DNA from: a virus
Strand: one strand, 5' to 3'
Virus genome (UHGV): UHGV-0299546
Length of the DNA stretch: 35,363 bases
Made by a program: the position numbers and the translations under genes. The notes beneath the pieces are model-generated. The model was given only the letters and a program-made list of their open reading frames with translations. It ran no database searches and was not told the DNA's origin. Positions 1-35,363 of this stretch are shown here, piece after piece; the first letter of the stretch is position 1; each line of letters starts with the position of its first letter.

Positions 1-173
1 CTGCACCTCCTTAAGTTATACAAAGTATAACTCACGGTGCTACAGGCAACGTTTTACCCCTGCGCATTTGTGAACGCCAGCAGAGTTTTTTATGCGTTAA
101 TAGATATGGAAAGCGGCTCGGAGAGAAAAGCAAAAGGTGAGGGAATTACAAAACAGAATGCGAGTCGTCTCGC

Positions 174-211
174 AAAAAACAACGCCACCCGAAGGTGACA
201 TGAAGGTGGCC
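174..211 (-). terminator. Hairpin (GCCACC...GGTGGC) followed by a T-run on the minus strand, downstream of int; overlaps the candidate att core
   Basis: Inverted repeat 184-189/205-210; A-run 174-179 on plus strand = U-tract on the minus-strand transcript. Confidence 0.4.
183..197. repeat. Left copy of 15-bp direct repeat CGCCACCCGAAGGTG (right copy 35245-35259); candidate attL core
   Basis: Exact 15-mer found at both window ends, about 100 bp from the int stop codon. Confidence 0.35.
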
Positions 212-290
212 GAACATACCGGCCTCCCTTTGATATATCAATTAGTTACATTAATATACATAGTCTTAAGTCGGCTTATTTAGTCCTATT

Positions 291-1286
291 TTATGGGCAA
301 TATCTGGACAACTCAGCCACAGGATTAAAACGCACAGCATCCTGCAAATAATCCGGTGCAAAATGGGCATAGGTCATCGTCTGCTGAATAGTGCTATGTC
401 CAAGTATTCTCTGCAAAGTGATGATATTCCCACCATTAATCATGAAGTGAGTGGCAAAGGTATGCCGTAAAACATGTATCGACTGCCCTTCAGGAAGATC
501 GGGCCTCACCTTTCTGATAGCCGTTCTGACAGCAGAATAACTTGGATAAATTAAACGACCAGTGGCCTTTGTTTTAATCATGCACTCCAGTTCTGACGAT
601 ATAGGTATAACGCGACGCTTCCCATTTTTGGTTTCCATAAAAATGACTTTGCCGCTAATAACATGCTCCCCCTTGATATTTGCAACTTCACTCCATCTTC
701 CACCTGTTGCCAGACACAACAAGACGGCTTTTAATTCATCACCAGATAACAACTCCAGTAATCGTGGAATATCTTCATGATACAAATAAGCCATTTCAGG
801 CTGTTTGATATTAAGTTTTTTCACATCATGAAACGGATTAGCCCCAGAATATTCCTCTGCGTCAATTAGTTTTGTGAAAAAACCACTCATCATTGCGCAA
901 TAACGATTAACCGTGGATTGTTTTATTCCGCGGTTAAGCAACAATAACCGATAATTAATTATGTTTTTACGAGTAAGTTGATCACTGCGTGTAACATTAA
1001 TACTTTCAAGATCACTAATGACCGCAGCAATACGCACTCGCTCCATCGCACCGTAAGGATGATTTTTACCGTGATACAACCACCAACAATCCAGCAGCTC
1101 CCTCAGCGAGCGCCGTTCTGTTGGCTTATCAACCCAGCCTTTGTCGTGGTAATGCTGCAATACATGACGCTCATACAAAACAGCCTCACCACGAGTATCA
1201 AATCGCCGCCTGAATCTCTTTCCTTCTGATCCAGCTGGCCGCACGTCCACACAAAATTTGCCATTAGCGAGCTTCTTAATCGACAT
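291..1286 (-). CDS. int: Phage integrase, tyrosine recombinase (P2 Int-like)
   Basis: Translation resembles P2 Int along its length (C-terminal HxLRHTFATHFMINGG...TLQRILGH...YAHFAP block). Start moved to ATG at 1286 (MSIKKL...), which has a GGAGG RBS 10 nt upstream; the ORF-track start at 1322 has none. Confidence 0.93.
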   Translation of the reverse strand: MSIKKLANGKFCVDVRPAGSEGKRFRRRFDTRGEAVLYERHVLQHYHDKGWVDKPTERRSLRELLDCWWLYHGKNHPYGAMERVRIAAVISDLESINVTRSDQLTRKNIINYRLLLLNRGIKQSTVNRYCAMMSGFFTKLIDAEEYSGANPFHDVKKLNIKQPEMAYLYHEDIPRLLELLSGDELKAVLLCLATGGRWSEVANIKGEHVISGKVIFMETKNGKRRVIPISSELECMIKTKATGRLIYPSYSAVRTAIRKVRPDLPEGQSIHVLRHTFATHFMINGGNIITLQRILGHSTIQQTMTYAHFAPDYLQDAVRFNPVAELSRYCP

Positions 1287-1352
1287 AAGGAAGCCCTCCA
1301 ATGAAAACATCATTTTGATCACAGCTCTGGGAAATAAATGCCTGGTGAACCG

Positions 1353-1646
1353 TTAACCAGTTTTCTTGCCGGAGCGGGATAATTCCGCTTCGTTTTGCCC
1401 AATGTGTGCGAGAGCCGGTACAACCTGCCCGGCCTTAGGTTCAACTTCATCAAACAAAAACCAGTCGCGATATTTAGAAAATCTTGGGTGCTTGAAAAGC
1501 TTGATAGTGATCTCAAGGCCAGGAAGGTTACGACCATACTCATAACTGGTCAGAGCAGAATAAGAAATCCCAATCATATCAGCGAATTCCCGCTGAGTGA
1601 GATCTTCAGATTTACGCATGACGCGAATTTTTTGAGGAATGTCCAT
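1353..1646 (-). CDS. C: Immunity repressor C (P2 C-like)
   Basis: 98 aa from ATG at 1646 (MDIPQKIRVMRKSE...); resembles P2 C along its length, including the C-terminal PALAHIGQNE...SGKKTG; lies between int and cox as in P2. Confidence 0.85.
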   Translation of the reverse strand: MDIPQKIRVMRKSEDLTQREFADMIGISYSALTSYEYGRNLPGLEITIKLFKHPRFSKYRDWFLFDEVEPKAGQVVPALAHIGQNEAELSRSGKKTG

Positions 1647-1688
1647 TTGACAAACTCCTACATATGTGTAGATTAACACCACATATGA
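1647..1688 (+). promoter_or_regulatory. Candidate early promoter Pe with candidate C-repressor operator repeats
   Basis: Consensus -35 TTGACA at 1647-1652, 16-bp spacer, -10-like TAGATT at 1669-1674; direct repeat ACATATG at 1660-1666 and 1681-1687 (21 bp apart) flanking the -10. Confidence 0.4.
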
Positions 1689-1760
1689 ACAGCAAACAAA
1701 TGTTCTAAGTGGTTCCAACTAGTGCCAGTTAGAAAAAGCACCAATAGCGGAGGATATCAG

Positions 1761-2186
1761 ATGCAAGAAAGCACTCAAAACGCGCCTGAGTCACTTTGCG
1801 GAACACGATGCGATCACCTGTCAGAAATGCCAGAAGGTGAGCATCAAAAAACAGGACGCAAAGCACGTGAACGTGAAGAAATTCGACTTTCAGAAAATCC
1901 CTCGCATCTCCTGTCAAAAGAAGGATTTGCGATGTATATCGGAAAGACCGTTGATGCCATCGTAAGCATGGCAAAAGCAGGAAAGCTACCTGCGGTGTAT
2001 ATGGCGGACCCTCTCAAGCCAGGCGGAAACGCTGAACTCTACATCAACAGAAAAGCGTGGGATGAAGCATGCGATCGCCTCATCGAAAACGCACCTCAGG
2101 AATGGCACGACTGGGAAAACCGTCTGTTTTTGTTTAAGCCAACAAGTGGCAGACGAAACAGAAACATCAGCGGTAAAGCAGCATAA
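1761..2186 (+). CDS. cox: Cox-like excisionase / early transcriptional regulator
   Basis: Segment FAMYIGKTVDAIVSMAKAGKLPAVYMADP...ELYINRKAW resembles P2 Cox; GGAGGA RBS at 1749-1754 before ATG 1761. Start is uncertain (in-frame ATGs also at 1722, 1827, 1932). Confidence 0.6.
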   Translation: MQESTQNAPESLCGTRCDHLSEMPEGEHQKTGRKAREREEIRLSENPSHLLSKEGFAMYIGKTVDAIVSMAKAGKLPAVYMADPLKPGGNAELYINRKAWDEACDRLIENAPQEWHDWENRLFLFKPTSGRRNRNISGKAA

Positions 2187-2223
2187 CTCAAACCATAATT
2201 CATTTTAGACGGAGTATTTTGAT

Positions 2224-2574
2224 ATGAAGGAGCGGCGTAATTCTCCACAGCAGCGCTTCCGCAACGGTGCAGAACGCCATGCTAACCGTTTCGCTACCAG
2301 TGCATCACGCAGCAACTCTCGCTACAGCCTGAGCGAAACACACGCAACGCCGGATGGCTACCCCGTAAAACAAATCGGCGAGCACACCTGGCTGATTGAG
2401 AAAGCTGGAATCGTGGTCCACAAATGCCCACGCAATCCGTTTACCGGAAACCGCATTTTTGCATTGAGCTGCGGCGACAATCAGCTCGGACAGGATTTCA
2501 CATTGTACGAAGCACTACGCACGGTTGATCGTCTGCTTCGCGGGCAAGGTTTTATTAAACAGGCTGACTTATAA
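2224..2574 (+). CDS. Hypothetical early-region protein
   Basis: 116-aa ORF with GGAG RBS 9 nt upstream; position corresponds to the P2 early operon. Confidence 0.55.
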   Translation: MKERRNSPQQRFRNGAERHANRFATSASRSNSRYSLSETHATPDGYPVKQIGEHTWLIEKAGIVVHKCPRNPFTGNRIFALSCGDNQLGQDFTLYEALRTVDRLLRGQGFIKQADL

Positions 2575-2584
2575 CAGGTGATTT

Positions 2585-2872
2585 ATGACCAAAGACTATG
2601 CACAAGGTGTATTTATCCGCTTTATTGATTTTCGCGGTGAACTGTTATTACGCGCATCCGCTATTGATGGAGTGACTCCGGCGGGTAAAAACGGAGCCGC
2701 CGAAGCCACTTACGTTTATCTGAACGGCACACGACTGCTTGTGGAACTTCCGTACCAGAGCGTACGAGAAATCATTAACGAAGCTGAAAAGGCACGTCAG
2801 GTTAATGGCGATAAACCCTATATCGAAATTATTTGTATGGATTCAGAAGCAGAAATCCAGAAGGCAGATTAA
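2585..2872 (+). CDS. Hypothetical early-region protein
   Basis: 95-aa ORF, AGGTGA RBS, tightly packed with neighbours. Confidence 0.55.
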   Translation: MTKDYAQGVFIRFIDFRGELLLRASAIDGVTPAGKNGAAEATYVYLNGTRLLVELPYQSVREIINEAEKARQVNGDKPYIEIICMDSEAEIQKAD

Positions 2873-2882
2873 AGGGTGTGCG

Positions 2883-3125
2883 ATGGACAAAGAATATAAA
2901 GCTCTCGTCAATAAAGCACTTGAGCGTTTTCATTTTCGCTTAAACACATCAGGGCTTCACGCCGAACACGCAGCCCATGATTCATTAGCAAGGGCAATCA
3001 GAAGCCTTTATGACGTGGCCTTTTACGCTGACGATTTGGATGCAATTAACGAACTTTCCGAACTCGTCTGCGCTGCAGAATGCGGGGATCGCATTGAACC
3101 ATATAAACTGGGGAATATCGCATGA
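2883..3125 (+). CDS. Hypothetical early-region protein
   Basis: 80 aa from ATG 2883 (MDKEYKALVNK...), in frame with ORF-track entry 2739..3125. Confidence 0.5.
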   Translation: MDKEYKALVNKALERFHFRLNTSGLHAEHAAHDSLARAIRSLYDVAFYADDLDAINELSELVCAAECGDRIEPYKLGNIA

Positions 3126-3235
3126 GTATATTTATGTCATGGATTGTTCTGATTATTTCGGTGGCCTGCGCAATCGGGATTATGCGAATTATTCATTCAG
3201 TGAAAAAGATTGAGCGTTTTTTCTCTGACGAATAA
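3122..3235 (+). CDS. Possible 37-aa hydrophobic small membrane protein
   Basis: Hand-translated MSIFMSWIVLIISVACAIGIMRIIHSVKKIERFFSDE; ATG overlaps the upstream stop (ATGA); below the ORF-track size cutoff. Confidence 0.3.
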   Translation: MSIFMSWIVLIISVACAIGIMRIIHSVKKIERFFSDE

Positions 3236-3328
3236 CAGCACAAATAAAACACCAGATTAAATAAGAAAACGTGAAAACCATCCGAATTAGCGGAGGCATT
3301 CACACACGTAAATAATGGAGATACAAAA

Positions 3329-3739
3329 ATGAACGCAAAAGAAAAAGGCATTGTAACTGCGCTAAAAAATATATCGAAGACCGCAAACAAAGCCATTCAG
3401 GATGCAACAAATGCAGGAATGATTGGGCCTGCCACCACAGCCATGATGATAGCAAGAGTAACCGCCGAAGCAGCCGAAATTATCGAAAAACAGGATGCTG
3501 AACTAACGGTTCTCAGAACACAACCAGTCACCGGACTGGATTTGTCTAACACCGGACGCCTTATTTACACAATTGGCTCGGAGCCACAGCAATACACCAT
3601 TATCGCCGGATTACAGGATAAATACCTGATCACTCCTCACCCCATAAGGGAATCAGAAATTCTGACAAATCTCCGCCTGATAGAGCGCTCTCAAGTCGCA
3701 TTCATTGATGGCGCGCAACGTGCCGTATTTAACGCATAG
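3329..3739 (+). CDS. Hypothetical early-region protein
   Basis: 136-aa ORF with GGAG RBS. Confidence 0.55.
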   Translation: MNAKEKGIVTALKNISKTANKAIQDATNAGMIGPATTAMMIARVTAEAAEIIEKQDAELTVLRTQPVTGLDLSNTGRLIYTIGSEPQQYTIIAGLQDKYLITPHPIRESEILTNLRLIERSQVAFIDGAQRAVFNA

Positions 3740-3762
3740 GGCTATTGGGCAAAGAGAGCGTA

Positions 3763-3966
3763 ATGGCAATTAAGCATTTTCCCGTCGTTCGCTTTACCTC
3801 CAGAGGACGCGAATACGAGGTCGACGAACGCCTGATTACCACTATCGACAAACACCGTTCAGAAAAGGATGCACATCACATCTATCTCACTGACGGCACT
3901 TACTTCTGCGCCACGAATGTGGTGCGGGTGAACCTTATCCGACAGGCACAGGAGTCACGCAGATGA
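3763..3966 (+). CDS. Hypothetical early-region protein
   Basis: ATG 3763 (MAIKHF...) preceded by AGAGAG; alternative start at 3745. Confidence 0.45.
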   Translation: MAIKHFPVVRFTSRGREYEVDERLITTIDKHRSEKDAHHIYLTDGTYFCATNVVRVNLIRQAQESRR

Positions 3967-4208
3967 CCATTCTGGACTACATCGCTGCCAATCCGGGTTG
4001 TAGCGGTGGAGAAATCGCCGCAGCACTGAATACCCCAACCACAACCATTAATGCGGAGTTACGCCGACTCTGGCGCGACGGCTTAGTCATCAGAGAAGAA
4101 CGCAAAACAGGCGGTCGGTTCTCTTACCAGGTAAACCCGATGCCGTTCGGGTGTGGCAACCCACTTACTCACATGTTTAACCAGCTACTGAAGGAAGCCA
4201 GAGCATGA
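3963..4208 (+). CDS. Small putative winged-helix DNA-binding protein
   Basis: 81 aa; translationally coupled (ATGA overlaps at both ends); the winged-helix call is judged by eye from the translation. Confidence 0.5.
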   Translation: MTILDYIAANPGCSGGEIAAALNTPTTTINAELRRLWRDGLVIREERKTGGRFSYQVNPMPFGCGNPLTHMFNQLLKEARA

Positions 4209-6065: not shown

Positions 6066-8831
6066 ATGACGGCAGAGTACATCAGGGACTGGCAACAACC
6101 GCGCCACGCAGTGGGGCGTGAAGGAACGGGGATCCCCGCTCCTGAATCCGCGCTTTCCTCCTGGCTGGATGCCTACCGGGCAGAGAACGAGCGCCGCCAG
6201 GAAATGGCTGATGCGGCGTTCTCCGCCACGCCGCTGGGCAACCTGATTAATAAAAGCCTGGACGCACAGGAAAAACAGGACAAAACCATCACACTGGCAG
6301 GAGACGCCAGAAAACAGGCACGCGGCGCGGTGGATGAAGCCATGGCCTCGCTGCGCCTGCTGCCGTCCTATCTGCGCGATCCGCTTATTCGCCACCTCTC
6401 CTTCCTTCGCAAAAAACAGGAAGCCGATCGCCGGAAAGGCAAAAAGAGCTGGCAGGCGGAACGCTATGCACGCGGAACCCTGCGCAAAATATTCGAACGT
6501 CTGGATCGCACTGACGGACGCTGGCTGACACCGGGTTATCGCTCCCTTGCCGGACGCGAACGCCTGGACGATTTGCTTTACCTGCCGCAGCTCAACAAAC
6601 ACCAGATACAGACGCTGGCCACCATGACGGCGGCGATGTTCAGCAGCACCTTCGAAAAGCTCTGCGATGGCTTTGGCGCGACTGATGGCGAGCTGACCAT
6701 GGATGTAACACTGAAGGCGTATCAGATGCTGGCCCGCATGGCGTTACACCTGCACGCTATGCCTCCACATTATGACGCTCTGACAACAGACAAAGACCGG
6801 AGGAACGAACCGGACACGGAGCTGCTGCCGGGCGCAATCCTTCGCCTGACCTGTGCGGAATGGTGGAAACGCAAACTGTGGCTGTTACGTTGCGAGTGGA
6901 GAGAAGAACAACTCCGCGCCGCCTGTCTGGTTTCCAGAAAAACATCGCCCTATCTGAGTCAGGACGCATTAAGTGAATTTCGCGCACAGCGCGAGAAAAC
7001 ACGCGATTTCCTGAAAAGTTTCATGCTGGAAAATGAAGACGGGTTCACGATTGATCTCGAGACGGTGTATTACGCGGGAGTAAGTAACCCGGTCCACCGT
7101 AAGGCAGAAATGATGGCCACCATGAAAGGGCTGGAACTTCTGGCCGAAGCCCGTGGCGACAAAGCGGTGTTTCTGACTGTCACCTGCCCGTCAAAATACC
7201 ACGCAACAACGGAGAACGGTCATCCGAACCCCAAATGGAACGGGGCCACCATGCGCGACTCCAGCGATTACCTGGTTAACACGTTTTTTGCGGCGGTCCG
7301 CAAAAAACTGAACCGCGACGGTCTGCGCTGGTATGGCATCCGCACGGTGGAGCCTCACCATGACGGCACCGTGCACTGGCATATGATGGTCTTTGCACAC
7401 CCGGACGAGATTGAAACCATCGTGTCCCACGTCTGCGATATTGCCATTCAGGAAGACCGCCACGAGCTGGGCGATGACATAACTCCGCGTTTTAAGGCGG
7501 AGTACGTAGACGGCTCAAAAGGCACGCCAACCAGCTACATCGCCACCTACATCGGAAAGAACCTGGACAGCCGCGCCGTGGATGGCATCGACCCGAAAAC
7601 GGGCAAGCCACGCATTGACCACGAAACAGGTAAATCAATGGCCGAGAGCGTGGAGCGCGCCATCGGCTGGGCGCGCCTTCACCGGGTCCGCCAGTTCCAG
7701 TTCTTTGGCATTCCCTCCCGTCAGGTGTGGCGTGAACTCCGCCGCCTTGCCAGCCAGATGGCACGCAACCCGGAAGGCCCGCAACGGCTGAAGGATGACG
7801 CAATGGATGCGGTTCTTGCTGCCGCTGATGCCGGGTGTTTTGCCACCTACATTGAAAAACAGGGTGGCGTACTTGTTCCGCGCAAGGACTACCTGATTCG
7901 CACCGCCTACGACCTCGCAGATGAGCTGAACGATTACGGCGAACAAAGCGTACAGATTTACGGGATCTGGTCGCCACTCATCGGGGAATCCTCCCGTGTG
8001 TGCACGCATCCGGATAACTGGAAGCTGGTAAGACGCAAACCGGAAGCGGAAGACAGCGCCCGCGAAAATGGTTTTGACCTTCAGGGCGGCCCTGCCGCCC
8101 CTTGGACTCGTGGCAATAACTGTCCCCGTGTACAGGAAACGGACAACAACGGGACAGAACAGCAGGAAGAACGGCCAGCACTGTGGCCGCAGCTTCCTGA
8201 CGGCGTTGATGTGGATGAATGGATGCGCTCACTGAAACGGCACGAACGCCGGGCGCTGATGCGTTCGCTTCGTGACAAACAGGCAAAAAACAGCAGTGAT
8301 GAAATGCAGAGCTGGACACAGAGCCGCAAACAGCAGCGGCCTTTGCCTGATAACCACGAATTACTCGCTAAAGAATGGCGGGAATCTGCCGAATCTCTCG
8401 GCCTGCATATCGGTGAACAGCAGATGCAGCACCTGTTACGAGGCGGCAGTCTGTACGTTGACGGCAGCATCATTGCACCGCAGGGATTTGAAATTGTACG
8501 CAAACCAGATACCCGACCGGACAGCCGAATCACGCAGCTCTGGCAGCGCCTGAGCCGTAATCACGGCGTAAACAGCACGGAAATCCGCCATAACCCGGTT
8601 TCCAGCTATCTGAAACAGCTCGAGGCATCAGACCCTGAAGCCGCTGCACGCCTGGCATCCACAATTCAGCAGGACCAGAACACCATGAAAACTCCCGTTA
8701 CCGTGCTTTCTGACATGCTGCGCGCCATCCGTGACGCAGAGCACGCACAGAGAATCAATGAAACCACTGAACGCGCACGTCACAAGGCGGGTCTGTTGCA
8801 GGACAAAGGCAATAGCGAGAAGAAAAAATAA
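6066..8831 (+). CDS. A: Replication initiation protein gpA (rolling-circle HUH endonuclease)
   Basis: 921 aa; HUH-type motif TVHWHMMVF and paired catalytic tyrosines in YIATYIGK, typical of the P2 A family. Confidence 0.9.
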   Translation: MTAEYIRDWQQPRHAVGREGTGIPAPESALSSWLDAYRAENERRQEMADAAFSATPLGNLINKSLDAQEKQDKTITLAGDARKQARGAVDEAMASLRLLPSYLRDPLIRHLSFLRKKQEADRRKGKKSWQAERYARGTLRKIFERLDRTDGRWLTPGYRSLAGRERLDDLLYLPQLNKHQIQTLATMTAAMFSSTFEKLCDGFGATDGELTMDVTLKAYQMLARMALHLHAMPPHYDALTTDKDRRNEPDTELLPGAILRLTCAEWWKRKLWLLRCEWREEQLRAACLVSRKTSPYLSQDALSEFRAQREKTRDFLKSFMLENEDGFTIDLETVYYAGVSNPVHRKAEMMATMKGLELLAEARGDKAVFLTVTCPSKYHATTENGHPNPKWNGATMRDSSDYLVNTFFAAVRKKLNRDGLRWYGIRTVEPHHDGTVHWHMMVFAHPDEIETIVSHVCDIAIQEDRHELGDDITPRFKAEYVDGSKGTPTSYIATYIGKNLDSRAVDGIDPKTGKPRIDHETGKSMAESVERAIGWARLHRVRQFQFFGIPSRQVWRELRRLASQMARNPEGPQRLKDDAMDAVLAAADAGCFATYIEKQGGVLVPRKDYLIRTAYDLADELNDYGEQSVQIYGIWSPLIGESSRVCTHPDNWKLVRRKPEAEDSARENGFDLQGGPAAPWTRGNNCPRVQETDNNGTEQQEERPALWPQLPDGVDVDEWMRSLKRHERRALMRSLRDKQAKNSSDEMQSWTQSRKQQRPLPDNHELLAKEWRESAESLGLHIGEQQMQHLLRGGSLYVDGSIIAPQGFEIVRKPDTRPDSRITQLWQRLSRNHGVNSTEIRHNPVSSYLKQLEASDPEAAARLASTIQQDQNTMKTPVTVLSDMLRAIRDAEHAQRINETTERARHKAGLLQDKGNSEKKK

Positions 8832-9011
8832 CCAAGAAAGAAATCATCAATTGTATGAAGGTAGAGTTTAGACATGGTAAGGACGTTCCATGAGGCACAC
8901 TGTAATTTCATATAGTATTCCTCTTCCCTGTTTGATAAAAAAGTGCAATACTATAAATAGTCCAGTTAAATGCTTTTTCAATTCACTTAAAATCAAGAGG
9001 TTACAGTTAAG

Positions 9012-10133
9012 ATGGGCGACTTAGGTGGTATTCAGTCAGATTTAGCCCAACTAGTTAGACTGGTAATAACTGAACAGTATGATGACGTTCGGTTATATGT
9101 CGCTCGCTTGGTGCGTAAATATCGGGAAACTATGCCTGCTCTATCCGAGCAGCTTGATCTTTATCTACGAAATAAACCGCAAAAGCCTGCACAAAGCCTG
9201 CGTAAGGTTACCGCACCAAAACAAGCGCTGCCTCAAACCATGCCTGTGGACGAGGAGTCAAGGCTTACCTTGCTTAAAGCACCAAATGAAAAGATTGTGA
9301 GCAAACCTCTACTGTCCAGTCAGATAGAAGACTCACTGGATCAAATTATTCTTGAGCGGAAGCACATCGATCGCCTCAAGACTCTCGGCTTACAACCAAC
9401 ACGCTCTGCCATTTTTGTTGGCCCTCCGGGTGTAGGTAAAACACTTACGGCAAGCTGGTTGGCTCAGAAATTAGGGGTTCCTTTTTACGTTCTTGATTTA
9501 ACGGCAGTAATGAGCAGCTATCTGGGCAAAAGCGGAAATAACCTTCGGGCAGCTCTAGATTTTGCGAAGAAAGGGCCGTGCGTTCTTCTGTTAGATGAAA
9601 TTGATTCAATCGCCAAAAAGAGAAGTGATGATTCTGATGTTGGAGAATTAAAAAGACTTGTTACCGTGATACTCCAGGAGGTTGACGAATGGCCGTCTTC
9701 TAGTTTGCTACTTGCTGCAACTAACTTCGCTGAGTTGATTGATCCAGCACTATGGAGACGTTTTGATTTAGTGCTCAATTTTGAGAAGCCAGATAGCGAA
9801 AGTATTAAAGAAGCAATTAAACGCTTTTCAGGTCCCGACTACGCGATTTTTGCACGTTGGATAGATCTACTGGCTATTATGTTCAAAAATGAATCTTTTA
9901 GTAATATTGAGCGTTCTATCAACAAATTCCGACGTTCGGTCGCTTTAGGTATTTCCTCAGATGAAGAGTTGATTGGGTCGTTCATTAAAGATGGTTTATC
10001 AGAATTAGACAGGAATGAACGTAAAGAAATTGCAGTTACTCTAAAAAGAAATTCTAAATTATCCCAGCATGCCATATCAGACTTAACCGGAGTCAGTAGG
10101 GATACAATTAGAAAATACAGTCAAAAAATGTAA
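9012..10133 (+). CDS. AAA+ ATPase with C-terminal HTH-like tail (IetA-like?); first gene of hotspot cargo
   Basis: Walker A GPPGVGKT (nt 9420-9443), Walker B VLLLDEID, sensor AATN; AT-rich relative to flanking phage genes; AAGAGG RBS. Confidence 0.85.
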   Translation: MGDLGGIQSDLAQLVRLVITEQYDDVRLYVARLVRKYRETMPALSEQLDLYLRNKPQKPAQSLRKVTAPKQALPQTMPVDEESRLTLLKAPNEKIVSKPLLSSQIEDSLDQIILERKHIDRLKTLGLQPTRSAIFVGPPGVGKTLTASWLAQKLGVPFYVLDLTAVMSSYLGKSGNNLRAALDFAKKGPCVLLLDEIDSIAKKRSDDSDVGELKRLVTVILQEVDEWPSSSLLLAATNFAELIDPALWRRFDLVLNFEKPDSESIKEAIKRFSGPDYAIFARWIDLLAIMFKNESFSNIERSINKFRRSVALGISSDEELIGSFIKDGLSELDRNERKEIAVTLKRNSKLSQHAISDLTGVSRDTIRKYSQKM

Positions 10134-10156: not shown

Positions 10157-12382
10157 ATGGCGAAAACTAATTTTCTGATTGGACGCGGCGAATTATTAAC
10201 CAGCGATATTCCTGGTCCTAAAAGAGTGCCCGGAAAAGCTGAGGTTTATTCTCTTTACGAATCGAAACAACGTTTATTGCCGCAAATTGCATCTACTATA
10301 GAAAATTTTGATGATTTACCCAGTCAGGCATGTCCTTATGATTATGCTGTGGCTAAGTTGACGTTGAATCCGAGCTATATTGCACGCTCTTTTTTTCCTG
10401 CAAAAATGCTTAAGTCTACCGGGTTAACGTCTATTGGCAGCAGGACGGTAAAAATTACGCCTCAAAGCTGGAAGCGAAAAGTTACTGTGTCAGAAGTAAC
10501 TACGACACAAATGTTTGTTGCTGGTAAAAGAGAATCCTTCAAAGAGTTACCTCATTGGGTGTCAGGACTCAAAGAGTTTTCTGACGAAGCGATTGATTTT
10601 GCACGCATAGAACGGTTCGATGCCTATTTACCCGAAGAGCGTATTATTACCATTGGTGAGCAGGATTCTTCGTATTTTGAGGTTGGTGTTCATTTACTGC
10701 CAGATAATGAACAAGACTTGGTTCAGCAACAATTTGTTCAGTTTGCATCAAATTTGAACATCAAAGTACATACTTCATTAGCTTTTACCGCTGGTACATT
10801 ATGGTTCGTGCCAATCCAGGCCGATAGAATTACTATTAGTAAGCTTGCGAAATTTACATTTGTACGAGTCATAAGACCGGTTCCAAGATTGCGTGGGATT
10901 AGACCAATACAAAGGAACTACGGTCCTTTAGCTCAGTGTAAATTGCCTGCTGAGGGCCCCGTATCTTCAGAAATAAAAGTTGCGATTCTTGATGGTGGTT
11001 TACCATCAGAGCACGCTATATCGCCATGGTTAAAATCCTATAGAGTTTTGGACGATCATGCAGAGGATGATCCAGACGGTTTAGAGCATGGTTTAGCTGT
11101 GTCTTCAGCCTTTTTATTTGGACCAATAAGTAATAAATCGGAAGCGAAAAGACCATACTCTTATATTGATAACTTAAGAGTTTTGGACAACAAGACCTGC
11201 CAAGAAGATCCGCTGGAACTATATCGAACTTTGGGCTTTATTGAAGAGGTATTGTTGTCTCGCCAGTATCAGTTTATCAATCTAAGTTTAGGTCCAGACC
11301 TACCAATTGAAGATACGGAAGTTCATGCATGGACTTCCGTTATTGATGATTTGTTAAGTGATGGTGAAACATTAATGACTGTTGCTGTTGGCAACAATGG
11401 AGAAATGGATCGCAAGTCTGGTAATGCAAGAATTCAAGTACCAGCCGATTGCGTTAATGCTCTTGCTGTTGGTGCTTGTGATACAGTTAATGATACGGAA
11501 TGGAAACGAGCACCATATAGCGCCATTGGGCCAGGCAGAAGTCCTGGCGTGATGAAACCGGATTTAGTTGCGTTTGGTGGTGACACAGACGAGTACTTTC
11601 ATGTTTTAGGTAAAGGTAAGAAGCCTGTAATCATACCCCAGCTAGGAACAAGCTTTGCCTCTCCTTACGCCTTACGAGCAGCTGTTGGTGTTCGGGCAAT
11701 TTTAGGGAACGATTTGAGCCTACTAGCAATCAAAGCTTTGTTAATTCATGCGTCAAAACAGCTTGATCATCCTTGTACAGAAGTTGGCTGGGGAAAACTT
11801 CCTGAAGACTTGAACGACATTATAGTCAGCCCTGATGGTGTTGCCCGTATCGTCTACCAAGGTGAATTGAAACCAGGAAAATACTTACGCGCTCCTCTTC
11901 CAATACCTGAAGGTGGCTTGAAAGGTAGAATAAACTTAGCGGCAACTTTCTGTTATGCAACAACCACTGATCCACAAGACCCAGCTTCCTATACAAAAGC
12001 TGGTTTGGAAGTGACATTCCGGCCAAATGATTCAAAAATCAAAGACGGAAAACAAAATGCTGAAACCAAGGGATTCTTTGAACTGGCCAAATATTCAACT
12101 GAAAGTGAGCGACGTTCTGACATGGGCAAATGGGAGACCGTCTTACATAATTCGAAGAACATGCTAGGTTCAACTCTAAAAAATCCTGTATTTGACATTC
12201 ATTATAACGCTCGTGAGGCCGGTGCAAGCATAGCCAGCCATAAGGCAGAAAAAATCAAGTATGCTCTTATAATTACCATTAAGGCATCAAAGCACCAAGA
12301 CCTGTATAACGAAATTTTACGTACTTATAATCAGGTGCTCGTGCCAATTCAACCGCAAACATCAATTCCTATTCGTTCGTAA
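10157..12382 (+). CDS. Subtilisin-like serine protease, peptidase S8 family, with ~265-aa N-terminal domain of unknown function (IetS-like?)
   Basis: Catalytic triad motifs in D-H-S order: VAILD279GG (nt 10991-10993), EH311GLAVSS, GTS499FASP (nt 11651-11653); oxyanion VGNNGE; AAGGAG RBS; 23 bp after the ATPase stop. Confidence 0.88.
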   Translation: MAKTNFLIGRGELLTSDIPGPKRVPGKAEVYSLYESKQRLLPQIASTIENFDDLPSQACPYDYAVAKLTLNPSYIARSFFPAKMLKSTGLTSIGSRTVKITPQSWKRKVTVSEVTTTQMFVAGKRESFKELPHWVSGLKEFSDEAIDFARIERFDAYLPEERIITIGEQDSSYFEVGVHLLPDNEQDLVQQQFVQFASNLNIKVHTSLAFTAGTLWFVPIQADRITISKLAKFTFVRVIRPVPRLRGIRPIQRNYGPLAQCKLPAEGPVSSEIKVAILDGGLPSEHAISPWLKSYRVLDDHAEDDPDGLEHGLAVSSAFLFGPISNKSEAKRPYSYIDNLRVLDNKTCQEDPLELYRTLGFIEEVLLSRQYQFINLSLGPDLPIEDTEVHAWTSVIDDLLSDGETLMTVAVGNNGEMDRKSGNARIQVPADCVNALAVGACDTVNDTEWKRAPYSAIGPGRSPGVMKPDLVAFGGDTDEYFHVLGKGKKPVIIPQLGTSFASPYALRAAVGVRAILGNDLSLLAIKALLIHASKQLDHPCTEVGWGKLPEDLNDIIVSPDGVARIVYQGELKPGKYLRAPLPIPEGGLKGRINLAATFCYATTTDPQDPASYTKAGLEVTFRPNDSKIKDGKQNAETKGFFELAKYSTESERRSDMGKWETVLHNSKNMLGSTLKNPVFDIHYNAREAGASIASHKAEKIKYALIITIKASKHQDLYNEILRTYNQVLVPIQPQTSIPIRS

Positions 12383-12395
12383 TCCTTCAAGACAT

Positions 12396-12426
12396 AATGC
12401 CCCTCAATTTGAGGGGCATTTCTTTG
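12396..12426 (+). terminator. Intrinsic terminator ending the cargo operon
   Basis: Stem TGCCCCTCA/TGAGGGGCA (12398-12406 / 12410-12418) followed by TTTCTTT. Confidence 0.65.
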
Positions 12427-12450
12427 CACAAAAGTGCACAAATTTGCACA
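12425..12450. repeat. Three direct TGCACA(A) repeats at 10-bp periodicity
   Basis: TGCACA at 12425, 12435 and 12445; lies between the cargo and the expected cos site. Confidence 0.5.
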
Positions 12451-24084: not shown

Positions 24085-26256
24085 ATGAGTACCACAACAC
24101 GAAAATTTAAAACCGTTATCACCGATACGGGTGCAAAAAAATTAGCTCAGGCAGCCGCGCCAGATGGTAAGCCTGTCCGCCTGACTCATATGGCCGTGGG
24201 CGACGGTGGCGGCACGTTGCCCACACCAGACAGTAAGCAGACCCGTCTGGTGCATGAGGTGTGGCGACACACTGTTAATCGCGTCATCCTGGACGCAACA
24301 CATCAGAACCGCATTATTGCGGAGCTGGTTATTCCTCCTGAAACGGGCGGATTCTGGATCCGGGAAATTGGTGTATTTGATGAGCACGGCGATTTAATCG
24401 CGGTGGGCAATACTGCCGAAAGTTACAAACCAACCGTTGCCGAAGGGTCCGGACGTGCACAAACATTTCGCACCATTCTGACCGTATCCAGCACTGCCAC
24501 CGTGGCGCTTACCGTGGATAACACCATGGTGATGGCCACAGTGGATTACGTGGATGACAAACTGAAAGAGCATGAACAGTCACGACGTCACCCGGATGCC
24601 TCGCTGACCGCAAAAGGCTTTGTTCAACTCAGTAGCGCCACTAACAGCGATTCTGAAACGCTGGCTGCAACGCCGAAAGCGGTTAAGGCCGCGTATGACC
24701 TGGCTAACGGAAAATATACCGCTCAGGACGCCACGACGGCACGAAAAGGGATAGTCCAGCTCAGCAGTGCAACCAACAGCACGTCTGAAACGCTGGCAGC
24801 GACACCAAAAGCTGTTAAGGCGGTAATGGATGAAACGAACAAGAAAGCGCCCTTAAACAGTCCTGCGCTGACCGGAACACCAACAACACCAACTGCGCCA
24901 AAAGGTACTAACAATACTCAGATCGCAAGCACGGCTTATGTTATGGCTGCGATCGCTGCCCTCGTGGACTCGTCGCCTGACGCACTGAATACGCTGAACG
25001 AGCTGGCTGCGGCGTTGGGCAACGACCCGAATTTTGCGACCACCATGACTAACGCGCTTGCGGGTAAGCAACCGAAAGATGCCACCCTGACGGCGCTGGC
25101 CGGGCTTGCTACTGCGGCAGACAGGTTTCCGTATTTTACGGGGAATGATGTTGCCAGCTTGGCAACCCTGACAAAAGTTGGGCGGGATATTCTTGCGAAA
25201 TCGACCGTTGCCGCCGTTATCGAATACCTCGGTTTACAGGAAACGGTAAACAAGGCTGGTAACGCCGTTCAGCGTTCCGGCGATAAAATGACCGGAGAAC
25301 TGAAAATTGGCACGATGAATGCGCTGCGAATTTTTAATGATGCCTTCGGTCTTATTTTCCGTCGTTCAGAAGAGTACCTTCATTTCATCCCTACGGCTGA
25401 AGGACAAGGCGAAAACGGTGATATCGGCCCATTAAGGCCATTCGCTATAAATCTGAGAACAGGTGCTATATCTGTCAGCCACGGGGCCAAAATTGATGGT
25501 GGGCTGGCGCTTGGTACAGATAACGCACTGGGCGGTAATTCCATTACTCTCGGAGATAACGACACTGGTATTAAACAGGGCGGCGACGGTGTCCTTTTAT
25601 TCTATTCAAATGGACAACTGGCATTTGGGCTTCAACCCGCATCTGCTGATTTTTATAAGCGGGTTGCATATATTCATCAGGGAATAATTCCTGATGGAAG
25701 TGGCGCATTTGCAGACCAGTTGAATAATGCCACCGCGCCTTTTGTTCAGACGCAGTTTGCCTGGAATCCCACTCCTGGTGGTCATTACGTGCCGATAGTT
25801 AAGGGCTTGTCCATTCGCAATGGACAGGGCTATCCCGGCGCGGTCAGCTTTGGGTATTTACTGACAGAACAGTATGGATTTCCGGTTCCATGTATTCATA
25901 TGCGTGGCGATGGCGGTAATGATGCTTTATGGCAGTTTAACCCGAACGATAAATCCTTTATTTCACCGGGTGCTCTTATTGCGGGTGGCGTCCATTATAA
26001 CACCGATGGAAATATATTTGGTGGGTGCTGGGGTTCAAACTTAAATGATTACCTGAATAGTTCTTTTATCAGAAATGTGCGTCTGGGAGGCAGACGTTCT
26101 GACGTATTATATCGCGGAGGACTTTGCGAACCAGGTAATGGTCATGTGACAACAGGATTGCAAATTATTGGTGAGGTTGATGGAGATGACTGGATGGTGT
26201 CACGACCACTACAAAAATACATTTCTGGTAACTGGTATAACGTTGAACAGGCATAG
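24085..26256 (+). CDS. H: Tail fibre protein gpH
   Basis: 723 aa; conserved P2 H-like N-terminus; internal phage tail-fibre repeats; variable C-terminal receptor-binding region. Confidence 0.9.
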   Translation: MSTTTRKFKTVITDTGAKKLAQAAAPDGKPVRLTHMAVGDGGGTLPTPDSKQTRLVHEVWRHTVNRVILDATHQNRIIAELVIPPETGGFWIREIGVFDEHGDLIAVGNTAESYKPTVAEGSGRAQTFRTILTVSSTATVALTVDNTMVMATVDYVDDKLKEHEQSRRHPDASLTAKGFVQLSSATNSDSETLAATPKAVKAAYDLANGKYTAQDATTARKGIVQLSSATNSTSETLAATPKAVKAVMDETNKKAPLNSPALTGTPTTPTAPKGTNNTQIASTAYVMAAIAALVDSSPDALNTLNELAAALGNDPNFATTMTNALAGKQPKDATLTALAGLATAADRFPYFTGNDVASLATLTKVGRDILAKSTVAAVIEYLGLQETVNKAGNAVQRSGDKMTGELKIGTMNALRIFNDAFGLIFRRSEEYLHFIPTAEGQGENGDIGPLRPFAINLRTGAISVSHGAKIDGGLALGTDNALGGNSITLGDNDTGIKQGGDGVLLFYSNGQLAFGLQPASADFYKRVAYIHQGIIPDGSGAFADQLNNATAPFVQTQFAWNPTPGGHYVPIVKGLSIRNGQGYPGAVSFGYLLTEQYGFPVPCIHMRGDGGNDALWQFNPNDKSFISPGALIAGGVHYNTDGNIFGGCWGSNLNDYLNSSFIRNVRLGGRRSDVLYRGGLCEPGNGHVTTGLQIIGEVDGDDWMVSRPLQKYISGNWYNVEQA
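24613..24825 (+). repeat. Intragenic tandem repeat in H, two ~44-aa units
   Basis: GFVQLSSATNSDSETLAATPKAVKA and GIVQLSSATNSTSETLAATPKAVKA, 132 bp apart. Confidence 0.6.
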
Positions 26257-26271
26257 CCATCAGGAGAATAT

Positions 26272-26799
26272 ATGCAACATCTGAAAAATATTACCGCCGG
26301 AAACCCCAAAACCATTGAGCAGTATCAGCTTACGAAAAAAGCTGGCGTTATCTGGCTATATACAGAAGACGGTAAAAACTGGTATGACGAATTAAAAAAC
26401 TTTCAGGATGATACTTTAAAAATAGCTTATGACCAGAAGGGGATTATTCGTTGTATTGAGAAAGACGTATCAATGCTTAACCCTGACGGGTTAAGTGTTG
26501 TTGAGTTACCGAATATAACAGCCAACCGTCGCGCCGATATCTCGGGAAACTGGAAGTTTCTGGATGGTAAAGTAGTAAAGCGGGAATATACAAAACAGGA
26601 ACTGCAACAGCAGGCAGAGTTACAAAAAGCCGCTTTGCTTTCCGAAGCGGAGTCTGTGATTCAACCGCTGGAACGTGCTGTCAGACTGAATATGGCAACT
26701 GATGAGGAACGCACACGACTGGAATCATGGGAACGCTACAGCGTTATGGTCAGCCGTGTGGATACTGCAAAGCCTGAATGGCCACAGAAACCAAAATAA
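26272..26799 (+). CDS. G: Tail fibre assembly chaperone gpG
   Basis: 175 aa following H; AGGAG RBS. Confidence 0.85.
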
Positions 26800-26808
26800 C
26801 AACAAATT

Positions 26809-26830
26809 AAGGCCCGTACGGGCCTTTTCT
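26809..26830 (+). terminator. Intrinsic terminator after the tail fibre operon
   Basis: AAGGCCCG-TA-CGGGCCTT followed by TTCTT. Confidence 0.6.
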
Positions 26831-26862
26831 TATTCTGGTGGTTCCGGGAATGTTACAGGAAG

Positions 26863-27018
26863 AACCAAATAGCAAGGCTGATCAAAAACGGTCATGACAG
26901 GAAACAACTGGCGATCATTTACGACATCGGCATATCGACGATTTATCGTTATCACCCTGTAGGCGATATACAGGCTGAAGAAACAACCAGGCAGACTCAG
27001 GAAAATGAAAACCGCTAA
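26863..27018 (+). pseudogene. C-terminal fragment of a serine DNA invertase (Hin/Gin/Pin family), no start codon
   Basis: Frame reads ...NQIARLIKNGHDRKQLAIIYDIGISTIYRYHPVGD...*, resembling the HTH domain of Hin; no ATG/GTG/TTG start (the frame opens at the G stop codon) and no catalytic domain. Confidence 0.5.
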
Positions 27019-33929: not shown

Positions 33930-34190
33930 ATGTTCCGTTGTCCGCTTTGTGGCGCATCTGCCCGTATCCGCACCAGTCGTCCGGAAAATGATTCAAACAC
34001 CGTGCGGCAAAAGTATTACCAGTGTAACAATCTGGAATGCGGCGTATGCTTCTCAACACTGGAAGCTTTCCATAAATTCACATCAAAACACGCCTCCGGC
34101 GTTCACTCATCAGAAGGTATCCCGTGGCATGATCTGCCAGCTTCACACAGGGGAAACAATCAGATGAGTTTGCCTTTATCTCAGAATTAA
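33930..34190 (+). CDS. ogr: Late transcription activator, Ogr/Delta zinc-finger family
   Basis: MFRCPLCGASARIRTSR...YYQCNNLECGVCF resembles P2 Ogr, including the four Cys ligands. Confidence 0.88.
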   Translation: MFRCPLCGASARIRTSRPENDSNTVRQKYYQCNNLECGVCFSTLEAFHKFTSKHASGVHSSEGIPWHDLPASHRGNNQMSLPLSQN

Positions 34191-34199
34191 CAGGCAGAA

Positions 34200-34228
34200 T
34201 TGCCGGAGTAACAAAAAAGCGATAGATT
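34200..34228 (+). promoter_or_regulatory. Candidate sigma70 promoter for the mok/hok-like locus
   Basis: TTGCCG (34200-34205), 17-bp spacer, TAGATT (34223-34228). Confidence 0.3.
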
Positions 34229-34250
34229 ACGCGCGGGTGCCTTTCGGCTG

Positions 34251-34463
34251 ATGGTCGGAGGGAATACCCGAAGGCCGGATGTGGAAAGGCCCCGGAAAAC
34301 ATATCTGTTTAACCGAGGCCCTAACCGCATTACCTTGACAAGTGAAAGGTTAGCGCCTCTCCGGAAAAGGAGCAAGTGCTATGTCGCAAAAATCGCTTAC
34401 GGCCATCACGTTCTGCGTGACGGCAATCCTCATCATCTGGATGCTGCACGGTTCGCTGTGTGA
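34251..34463 (+). CDS. mok-like overlapping reading frame (70 aa)
   Basis: ORF starting upstream of, and overlapping, the hok-like gene in another frame, as in hok/mok/sok loci. Confidence 0.35.
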   Translation: MVGGNTRRPDVERPRKTYLFNRGPNRITLTSERLAPLRKRSKCYVAKIAYGHHVLRDGNPHHLDAARFAV

Positions 34464-34521
34464 AATACGGATGAGTTTCTGGGGAGCGGAGTTTGCGGCG
34501 TTCTTACAGTGTAAGCAGTAA
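34381..34521 (+). CDS. hok: Hok/Gef-family type I toxin (46 aa)
   Basis: Hand-translated MSQKSLTAITFCVTAILIIWMLHGSLCEIRMSFWGAEFAAFLQCKQ: transmembrane helix, then SLCEI and AAFLxCK motifs as in HokA; AAGGAG RBS 7 nt upstream. Confidence 0.7.
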   Translation: MSQKSLTAITFCVTAILIIWMLHGSLCEIRMSFWGAEFAAFLQCKQ

Positions 34522-34610
34522 GGAAACCGCGACGGGGGAGCAATCCCCCGTCAATCGGTTGCCAGGGTAAGGTCGATAAGGTACCCTATCTCACAGACAC
34601 GAACAACAAA

Positions 34611-34632
34611 CCCGCAGCGTAAAGACTGCGGG
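34611..34632 (+). terminator. Intrinsic terminator after the hok-like gene
   Basis: CCCGCAG-CGTAAAGA-CTGCGGG followed by a T-rich tract. Confidence 0.55.
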
Positions 34633-34633
34633 T

Positions 34634-34669
<36 letters not shown>

Positions 34670-34674
34670 AACAA

Positions 34675-34698
34675 AATAGTTAATTAAAATTAACTATT
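34675..34698. repeat. Perfect 11-bp inverted repeat AATAGTTAATT-aa-AATTAACTATT
   Basis: Overlaps the stop codon of the minus-strand ORF; AT-rich palindrome. Confidence 0.7.
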
Positions 34699-34971
34699 AT
34701 GCTCTTGTCTCCATTGCCTAACCATTTCATCAGTAACATCACTCGCATAACAAATCACGTTATATCCTCCGCTACGGCTGTACGCACTACGCCCACCGCA
34801 TCGACTTCCATTTCTTGCATGATTATAAGGGCATGCACAATTTCCGGGATAAGATTCAATAGATTCCCTGATTATTTCTTGTTTAATTTGACTGTCAGAT
34901 TTATTAGTCTTTGCGTACCCCAACACAGACACAAAACAAAGACACATCCCAATAAAAATTTTAACTTTCAT
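34690..34971 (-). CDS. Small signal-peptide protein (93 aa), AT-rich moron-like gene
   Basis: ATG 34971 with AGGGAG RBS; N-terminal MKVKIFIGMCLCFVSVLGYA signal-like segment; Cys/Gly-rich mature part. Confidence 0.55.
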   Translation of the reverse strand: MKVKIFIGMCLCFVSVLGYAKTNKSDSQIKQEIIRESIESYPGNCACPYNHARNGSRCGGRSAYSRSGGYNVICYASDVTDEMVRQWRQEHNS

Positions 34972-35243
34972 ATAAAGCTCCCTGTTAAAAACCAGCAATA
35001 AAATTACTACCAAGTAGTAATGGGAATTTCTGGAACAAAGATCACAAAACAAAACAGCTAATATAAAAGCTATATAATTTTTAATTCCTATAGAAAAAGC
35101 CCAACAACCACGCGACGACACCAAGCAGCCATCACCACATAAACAAAGCCCGCATTAAACAGTGCGGGCTTTAAATCGCTATGGCAATAAGTGGACAACA
35201 CAAAAAATAATCCATTATTTTTCATTGTGTTATGCGGATTTTC

Positions 35244-35273
35244 GCGCCACCCGAAGGTGGCGTGCTTTTATTA
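35244..35273 (+). terminator. Hairpin GCGCCACC-CGAA-GGTGGCG followed by a T-rich tract; contains the right copy of the 15-bp repeat (candidate attR core)
   Basis: Stem-loop 35244-35261, then TGCTTTTATTATT. Confidence 0.4.
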
Positions 35274-35363
35274 TTACTTATCCCTGTCTAACCAGTCGCC
35301 GCTTTCAATTAGCTTTAATCCATCGACGGGTCGTTGATAAACGTACATCCATGCACTCCCGTA

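Follow-up and report, generated by a model that had tools for sequence, protein, structure and literature searches.

IetAS was first described as a plasmid-stabilising toxin-antitoxin (TA) pair composed of a protease toxin and an ATPase antitoxin (Yamamoto 2009, as related in PMC13069673, PMC5006074 and PMC8562856). It is known from the iet locus of pTiC58 (Yamamoto 2009), as an anti-phage system (Gao 2020) and from ECOR52 (bioRxiv 10.1101/2022.08.21.504612), with the gene for an AAA+ ATPase followed by that for an S8 protease. The same order is found in UHGV virus genome UHGV-0299546, a stretch of 35,363 nucleotides that is referred to here as the window. The ATPase gene of this stretch is ietA, the ATPase half of a catalogued IetAS toxin-antitoxin/anti-phage pair in a P2-like prophage, and not a new system. 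The C-terminus of its product carries a predicted helix-turn-helix (HTH), and this HTH most likely turns off the promoter of the pair itself. We give the overall reading, that the gene is IetA of IetAS and that its HTH autoregulates ietAS through a heptamer operator, a probability of about 70%.

Several homologues share this organisation. SgiAT of Salmonella Genomic Island 1 (PMC5006074) and the Mycoplasma TA132/133 AAA-ATPase/subtilisin pair (PMC8562856), likened here by their descriptions, are two-gene operons that encode an ATPase antitoxin and an S8 toxin with a gap of ~20 bp; neither paper mentions an HTH or an operator. In the homologues, the IetS-type protease is the toxin and is neutralised by the ATPase (PMC5006074, PMC8562856, PMC13069673). 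SgiAT caused no post-segregational killing from its native promoter (PMC5006074), which fits tight control of its expression. The Bacillus ietAS pair acts by abortive infection that is triggered by a phage protein, and its escape mutations fall in phage replication proteins (bioRxiv 10.1101/2022.08.27.505566). The ietHAS system (Liu-DS4, PMC13069673) is built on the same IetA/IetS core and requires the protease for defence, but has an extra SNF2 helicase gene that the window cargo lacks. Cloning of an ietA mutant did not succeed, as would fit a role of IetA as antitoxin, and the same 2026 paper states that the way in which IetAS acts against phages 'remains unknown' (PMC13069673). In E. coli, IetAS is reported to be often prophage-borne, and the window module likewise lies on a mobile element.

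The pair in the window consists of two genes:
9012..10133, plus strand: ietA, a classical-clade AAA+ ATPase and probable antitoxin/regulatory partner of IetS
10157..12382, plus strand: ietS, a 741-aa S8 (subtilisin-like) serine protease and probable toxin/effector, with PADLOC and Pfam matches

The ietA open reading frame (ORF) encodes 373 aa plus the stop codon. Its product matches the PADLOC IetA model PDLC02196 with E=1e-77, residues 9-372 aligning with profile positions 5-370 of 374. IetS matches the PADLOC model PDLC02197 (E=6.7e-52, residues 36-726) and Pfam Peptidase_S8 (E=2.5e-19, residues 271-546). Its catalytic triad of D278, H311 and S499 is intact, and the oxyanion Asn lies in the GNNG motif at 412-415. 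The genes are on the same strand, separated by 23 nt, and the Shine-Dalgarno sequence TAAGGAG precedes ietS.

The two genes are rarely found apart. Among 80 genome loci from many phyla, with 50-94% IetA identity, ietS lies directly downstream of ietA in 77; L030 and L079 clearly reach a contig edge, and L034 has ~450 nt downstream without an IetS match. In the IMG/VR database, relatives are encoded in 438 stretches, and 77 of the 80 loci retrieved from these have ietS downstream, for 154 of 160 related loci overall. IetA and IetS also diverge in parallel. A first-pass annotation of the window, made from the letters alone, had described an AAA+ ATPase with a Walker core at about residues 130-260, and had proposed from the gene layout that it is the sensing or regulatory partner of the protease. 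The ATPase assignment is confirmed by Pfam AAA (PF00004) at residues 134-258 (E=2.6e-30) and by Walker A and B motifs. A regulatory partnership is favoured by the adjacency in both genome and viral loci and, by analogy, by the neutralisation of the protease by the ATPase in published homologues. That annotation missed both the named IetAS system and the known P2 defence hotspot in which it sits.

The C-terminal helix-turn-helix of IetA

The tail of the window protein is the following feature:
10011..10130, plus strand: C-terminal tri-helical HTH, residues 334-373, with recognition helix S362-RDTIRKY

The first-pass annotation had noticed an HTH-like string, KLSQHAISDLTGVSRDTIRKYSQK, which lies at residues 349-372, and had named a disordered or non-DNA-binding tail as grounds for dropping the idea. 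In structure prediction, the tail is ordered and forms three helices, at residues 334-347, 352-359 and 363-372. Their predicted local distance difference test (pLDDT) scores are ~80-84 in a full-length AlphaFold2 model (20-sequence alignment; mean pLDDT 72.9) and 92 in a model of the domain only.

The window protein taken alone falls under the Pfam HTH thresholds (HTH_11, 19.1 bits against a cutoff of 25), so the HTH call rests on family-level evidence. When 39 C-terminal fragments of family members were scanned singly, 23 matched Pfam HTH_23 (best E=2e-10), and others matched HTH_7, HTH_28, HTH_38 or Sigma70_r4. A profile of the C-terminal fragments matches the HTH of B. subtilis DeoR (7bhy, E=3.9e-6), Fis-like proteins, the IS21 transposase and resolvases. 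The tail combines a tri-helical fold with profile similarity to DNA-binding HTH families, and the domain is basic, with an isoelectric point (pI) of 10.6.

The HTH is also well conserved. Mean majority-residue conservation over 81 sequences is 0.85 in the HTH segment 350-369, 0.89 in the AAA core and 0.70 in the lid. L350, Q352, S356, T359 and S362-K368 are invariant at overall identities of at least 64%. All 122 cluster representatives that are full-length-like (38-58% identity) have a C-terminal segment alignable to the HTH region. Most IetA proteins end in this domain, but not all. The window IetA is ~32-35% identical to IetA of Agrobacterium/Rhizobium plasmids, and a pTi-borne protein (328 aa) matches the PADLOC model only to position 322 and has no HTH, whereas pRi1724 IetA has one. 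By sequence and predicted structure, the tail is a real HTH that is kept across the HTH-bearing IetA subfamily, and it is predicted to bind DNA.

The end of the protein is variable. At the position corresponding to 10119-10133, most relatives (loci L003-L080) continue beyond the HTH with a basic tail of 10-25 residues (KKRRREA, RKGRGLK). The E. coli allele ends early with KYSQKM, and close Salmonella and Citrobacter alleles end with KYSPKKSNAA.

Phased heptamers at the putative ietAS promoter

The upstream regions of 50 non-redundant loci, in which synonymous sites are saturated, were aligned gap-free. They share one layout, in which an extended -10-like TGnGAcAAT is followed after 5 nt by TAGTCC(A/G), with the start codon exactly 54 nt later. 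In none of the TAGTCC columns does the majority base fall below a fraction of 0.8; for invariant residues of the same genes, four-fold degenerate sites give a mean of 0.44 and a maximum of 0.76. In the window, the elements, with candidate operator half-sites O2, O3' and O3, are the following:
8924..8952, plus strand: putative ietAS promoter, with -35-like TTCCCT at 8924-8929, a 17-nt spacer ending in TG at 8944-8945 (extended -10) and -10-like AATACT at 8947-8952
8958-8964, plus strand (direct): half-site O2, TAGTCCA, at the predicted transcription start and near-invariant in the 50 relatives
8989..9003, plus strand: leader block AAAATCAA-GAGG-TTA, conserved at a fixed register of +33..+46 from O2 in the 50 loci
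9013-9019, minus strand (inverted): half-site O3', TGGGCGA, an inverted copy of the heptamer that overlaps the start codon
9043-9049, plus strand (direct): half-site O3, TAGCCCA, a direct copy of O2 within codons Leu11-Ala12-Gln13

The putative promoter was placed by its register with the consensus ..cTTCACA..N..TGnGAcAAT-N5-TAGTCCA; a simple promoter scan of the window found nothing above chance. The half-sites are spaced 55 bp (O2-O3'), 30 bp (O3'-O3) and 85 bp (O2-O3) apart.

The internal copy leaves its mark on the coding sequence. It overlies a conserved D-[LF]-[AV]-[QHN] motif (codons 10-13), and in the window clade it stands at +85 from O2 in 42 of the 50 loci, at +84 in five and at +86 in two. 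Leu11 is encoded by TTA or CTA in ~46 of 50 loci (41 in frame and 5 register-shifted), compared with a share of 16% over the whole gene. For Ala12, the codon is GCC in 36 rows that are in frame, and apparently in ~7 register-shifted rows also, compared with 32% over the gene. The internal heptamer freezes the synonymous positions of codons 11-12, and the phased repeats are under selection. When it was used as a probe, a direct copy was present 74-87 nt upstream in 65 of 139 distinct loci, compared with 2.7 (maximum 8) in shuffled sequences, and 51 of the 139 had an inverted copy with at most one mismatch that covers the start codon, 30 nt upstream. The O2-O3 distance clusters at 75 or 85 bp across clades, one helical turn apart.

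More distant clades carry an inverted pair, TGGACTA-N23-TAGTCCA, with 29-32 nt from start to start. In the few distant loci that were read (L116, L133), this pair flanks or overlaps the -35 and -10 elements, and in several distant loci both upstream half-sites are upstream of the -10 element and hence untranscribed. In an unbiased count, 21 of 143 distinct upstream regions contained an exact 7-mer inverted pair at a spacing of 27-33 nt, and dinucleotide shuffles gave 3.0 +/- 1.7 (maximum 8). The sequence of the arms changes with that of the recognition helix:
Recognition helix SRDT[IL]R: arms TGGACTA / TAGTCCA
Recognition helix AR[ED]TIR[AT]: arms TGGAAGA / TCTTCCA
Recognition helix ARDTIRRH: arms TGGCGAA / TTCGCCA
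Recognition helix SHPTIANK: arms TGGTAAC / GTTACCA

The HTH of IetA is the only recognisable DNA-binding domain in the operon. The HTH-less A. tumefaciens pTi locus (L081, 2469-4298), a single example, has no phased heptamers and has a DUF6088/AbiEi_4 regulator-like gene immediately upstream, which may supply the HTH in trans. The leader appears unstructured. RNAalifold on 42 sequences from +1 to +100 returned 0 pairs, minimum free energy (MFE) z-scores of the leaders averaged -0.05 over the 50 loci (+1.47 for the window leader), and there was no Rfam match. Hairpins drawn by eye after TAGTCC had suggested a structured 5' leader RNA, a candidate that was rejected on these results.

We infer that IetA autoregulates ietAS through the heptamers, because the sites are phased and clade-specific, co-vary with the recognition helix and accompany the operon's sole recognisable DNA-binding domain, and RNA structure does not account for them. 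This is the direction in which the first-pass annotation had pointed when it suggested nucleic-acid binding or autoregulation by the tail; both the HTH profiles and the clade-specific heptamer that co-varies with the helix now speak for it, the latter being the pattern that an autoregulatory operator would be expected to leave. No mention of an IetA HTH or of a matching heptamer operator was found in the searchable literature.

Several smaller features lie in the same region. The family consensus of the leader block is aAAATCAA..agTTa, just 5' of the start codon, and the window's Shine-Dalgarno sequence GAGG lies inside the block; most relatives have no good Shine-Dalgarno sequence there. Around the putative promoter of the window, the pentamer ATAGT occurs three times within 50 nt, once inverted (8912-8916, 8950-8954 and 8957-8961). 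The outer arms form a 15-nt inverted repeat at 8911-8925/8941-8955, which was considered as a family-wide element and rejected, as its conservation does not reach beyond the closest enterobacterial relatives. By eye, Firmicute-type loci (L120-L123, L127/L129/L136/L158) with helices GLSRPTIKK and SVSRSLIRK have multiple GGTAAA or GGTAT/GGTTT direct repeats upstream of ietA, and not the TAGTCCA set.

Proposed mechanism and competing explanations

By analogy with published homologues, IetS would be a subtilisin-like protease that is toxic alone, and IetA would neutralise it, apparently in a manner that needs its ATPase. Phage infection, or a specific phage protein, would release the toxicity of IetS, and the infection would be aborted. 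Comparative genomics suggests that the IetA HTH binds the phased heptamers, which in the window are TAGTCCA where transcription is predicted to start, the inverted TGGGCGA that overlaps the start codon, and TAGCCCA within codons 11-13. As a presumed hexamer that offers several HTHs, IetA would repress transcription of ietAS and, as in type II antitoxins, autoregulation would keep the toxin:antitoxin ratio controlled. The 30-bp inverted pair would span ~100 Å, which is about the diameter of an AAA+ ring.

Like the HTH antitoxins of type II TA systems, such as HigA, MqsA and HipB, IetA carries an HTH, and it is proposed to bind repeats over its own promoter. IetA differs from these in being a 373-aa ATP-driven motor and not a small labile protein, in having a protease as its toxin, and in having three phased half-sites that reach into the coding region. 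The arrangement of an AAA+ domain with a C-terminal DNA-binding domain also recalls the NtrC/PspF enhancer-binding proteins and DnaA, but this is an analogy of architecture and not of membership, as the IetA motor is classical and p97/FtsH-like. Among the 20 families listed with E up to 0.1, no DnaA Pfam match to IetA was found, nor one to Sigma54_activat, the AAA+ domain with a GAFTGA loop that marks sigma-54 activators; only the order of domains is similar.

Several observations weigh against autoregulation through this operator, or limit how far it can be carried to the window pair. TAGTCCA is not enriched across the window, with 3 copies against 2.05 expected, so the operator signal comes only from comparison between loci, and nothing in the window points to a wider regulon. 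The window's own clade has no conserved upstream inverted half-site at -30, and its layout of one promoter-proximal and two intragenic sites is unusual for an operator. The co-variation of helix and heptamer rests on ~5-6 independent switches in clades that are phylogenetically non-independent. The window proteins score below the equivalog cut-offs of NCBIfam, with 223 bits against 510 for IetA (IteA_antiphage, NF042959) and 137 bits against 900 for IetS (IteS_antiphage, NF042956). The pair is thus a diverged subfamily of the IetAS family and not an equivalog, and what it does is extrapolated; a role as ATPase-dependent antitoxin is taken from homologues that are 32-50% identical or less.

The HTH could instead serve as a sensor that binds phage DNA or a replication intermediate, which would turn IetA off and free the protease. 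Conservation of the HTH as strong as that of the ATPase core would suit a sensor, as would the basic tail that many relatives add after it, the escape mutants of the Bacillus homologue in phage replication proteins (bioRxiv 10.1101/2022.08.27.505566) and the reportedly unknown anti-phage mechanism (PMC13069673). A sensor does not predict, however, that the system would carry the repeated heptamers in its promoter and its own 5' end, or that these would co-vary with the helix across unrelated hosts that face unrelated phages, and we consider this explanation unlikely, although the sensor and autoregulator roles are not mutually exclusive. An equally improbable account has the heptamers acting on RNA, either in control of ietA translation or as sites in the leader mRNA for IetA or another factor. 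None of the three sites of the window clade lies before the predicted transcription start, one covers the start codon, and most relatives pair a poor Shine-Dalgarno sequence with the conserved AAATCAA..GTTA block, as this account would have it. Yet the leaders show no conserved RNA secondary structure, the inverted pair of distant clades flanks the -35 and -10 elements and is untranscribed, the spacings differ by ~10 bp, as expected of DNA helical phasing, and the HTH matches DNA-binding families.

The tail is very unlikely to be a protein-protein module that docks, for example, IetS or neighbouring subunits, with the heptamers bound by a host factor or representing promoter features unrelated to IetA. 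The profiles specifically match DNA-binding HTH families, the domain is basic, the heptamer changes together with the recognition helix, and the pTi locus whose IetA has no HTH lacks phased heptamers and has a separate gene for an AbiEi_4-type regulator just upstream. That the ATPase is of a generic housekeeping or phage chaperone type and merely lies beside a protease gene is effectively refuted. This was the case that the first-pass annotation had set against its own proposal, and it draws some colour from the best Foldseek matches (p97, FtsH and FIGL-1) and from the RefSeq label of the window ATPase, which is only 'AAA family ATPase'. Against it stand full-length matches to the IetA model, the strict and co-diverging IetS pairing, and a low-GC cargo island in a defence hotspot.

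Autoregulation by the HTH could also be part of a broader arrangement, which we put forward as a speculative idea with a small chance of being right. In the resting cell, IetA would be a DNA-tethered AAA+ ring on the ietAS promoter and 5' end, holding the three heptamers through several HTHs. The bound state would both repress the operon and be needed to hold IetS inactive, and phage-induced DNA events, such as replication or SSB-type (single-stranded DNA-binding) proteins, host-DNA damage or transcription takeover, would dislodge the ring and thereby link sensing directly to release of the protease. If this were true, the operator complex would itself be the sensor of the IetAS defence system.

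The candidate operator leaves the identity of the system unchanged; it is a modest new mechanistic lead, with computational support, in a known system. What the analysis adds is a family-wide HTH with a matching, phased candidate operator, which would give an experimental handle on the control of a poorly understood system. A toxic protease may be mis-regulated in constructs whose native promoter has been exchanged, whose first 13 codons have been recoded or whose C-terminus has been cut short.

The remaining domains of IetA and the prophage setting

By sequence analysis, IetA is built of four parts: an N-terminal helical domain, a motif-bearing linker, a complete classical AAA+ motor and the C-terminal tri-helical HTH. 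The parts upstream of the HTH are the following:
9012..9176, plus strand: N-terminal helical domain, residues 1-55, IetA-family-specific, with three helices at 7-53 (AlphaFold2 pLDDT 70-80)
9243..9278, plus strand: linear motif PVDEESRLTLLK, residues 78-89, conserved within a predicted disordered linker (pLDDT <50 around the motif)
9309..9797, plus strand: AAA+ large subdomain, residues 100-262, with Walker A at 137-144, pore loop S169-Y170-L171-G172, Walker B at 192-198, sensor-1 N238 and R249/R250
9798..10010, plus strand: AAA+ lid (small helical subdomain), residues 263-333, with model helices within 262-329 and mean conservation of 0.70

The first-pass annotation had described an N-terminal extension of ~130 aa. 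The extension is real, but its length was overstated and is nearer 100 aa, as the first AAA+ helix of the AlphaFold2 model spans residues 103-124. A 30-member profile of the N-terminal domain had no Pfam or PDB sequence match; the best Pfam hit had E=0.007 in one of the 30 members, and PDB yielded only designed helical proteins; an MIT-like domain would be one candidate. The linker at 57-95 is modelled with low confidence. Its motif, P-[VI]-D-x-[DE]-[ST]-R-L-x-L-[LV]-[KR], is retained in relatives down to ~25% N-terminal identity and may act as a peptide that docks on IetS or on the motor.

Walker A reads GPPGVGKT and Walker B LLLDEID. Across 81 locus-derived and 123 representative sequences, K143, D195, E196, N238, R249 and R250 are invariant or nearly so, and pore-loop 1 is S-[Y/F/L]-L-G, with Y, F or L at position 170. 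The motor has the hallmarks of the classical AAA+ clade: Walker A and B, a sensor-1 Asn, two arginines in the second region of homology (SRH) and pore-loop 1. The best Foldseek matches for the motor, the p97 D2 domain, FtsH and FIGL-1, also place it in this clade; no solved IetA structure was among the matches.

Downstream of ietS lies one further element of the operon:
12399..12426, plus strand: terminator-like hairpin, GCCCCTC-AATTT-GAGGGGC followed by ATTTCTTTG, T-rich, read directly from the sequence

The hairpin is the probable end of the operon; it was not among the features listed by a consensus scan. At 12434-12449 there is another palindrome, GTGCACAAATTTGCAC, with a T-run after it.

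The two genes form an island of low GC content (0.40-0.43, against 0.52-0.58 in the flanks), and this cargo island holds only ietA and ietS. It is flanked by a replication endonuclease gene (6066-8831) and by portal and terminase genes on the minus strand, and E. coli RefSeq genomes label the flanks as replication endonuclease and phage portal protein. The gpA-gpQ region is a defence hotspot of P2-like phages (PMC9122126), and here gpA (replication endonuclease) and gpQ (portal) enclose a variable insert. In phage P88 and its relatives, only the flanks match, and ParM/partition genes occupy the same site. For annotation, the locus is ordinary IetAS cargo in the P2 gpA-gpQ hotspot.

Of 5426 complete E. 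coli genomes, 43 carry the ietAS cargo at identities of at least 99.6% and one more has a diverged copy, for 44 in all; every copy is chromosomal. Strain ECOR52 is not visible in the match list from these genomes. Some copies are interrupted or bordered by insertion sequences (NZ_CM143910.1, NZ_CP169013.1 and NZ_CP077596.1; hits H13-H15 and H76). ISKpn26 splits the S8 peptidase in strain E06, IS1203 adjoins the pair in two O111/veal strains, and in genome H114 no more than the 3' 43% of the query is kept.

The ORF for the gpA-like replication endonuclease, at 6066-8831, encodes 921 aa, of which the C-terminal ~200 look charged and of low complexity, and it is presumably longer than P2 gpA. Other low-GC stretches of the prophage, at 1-4000, 25000-27000 and 34000-35363 (0.41-0.50, against ~0.55), may be accessory or hotspot cargo.

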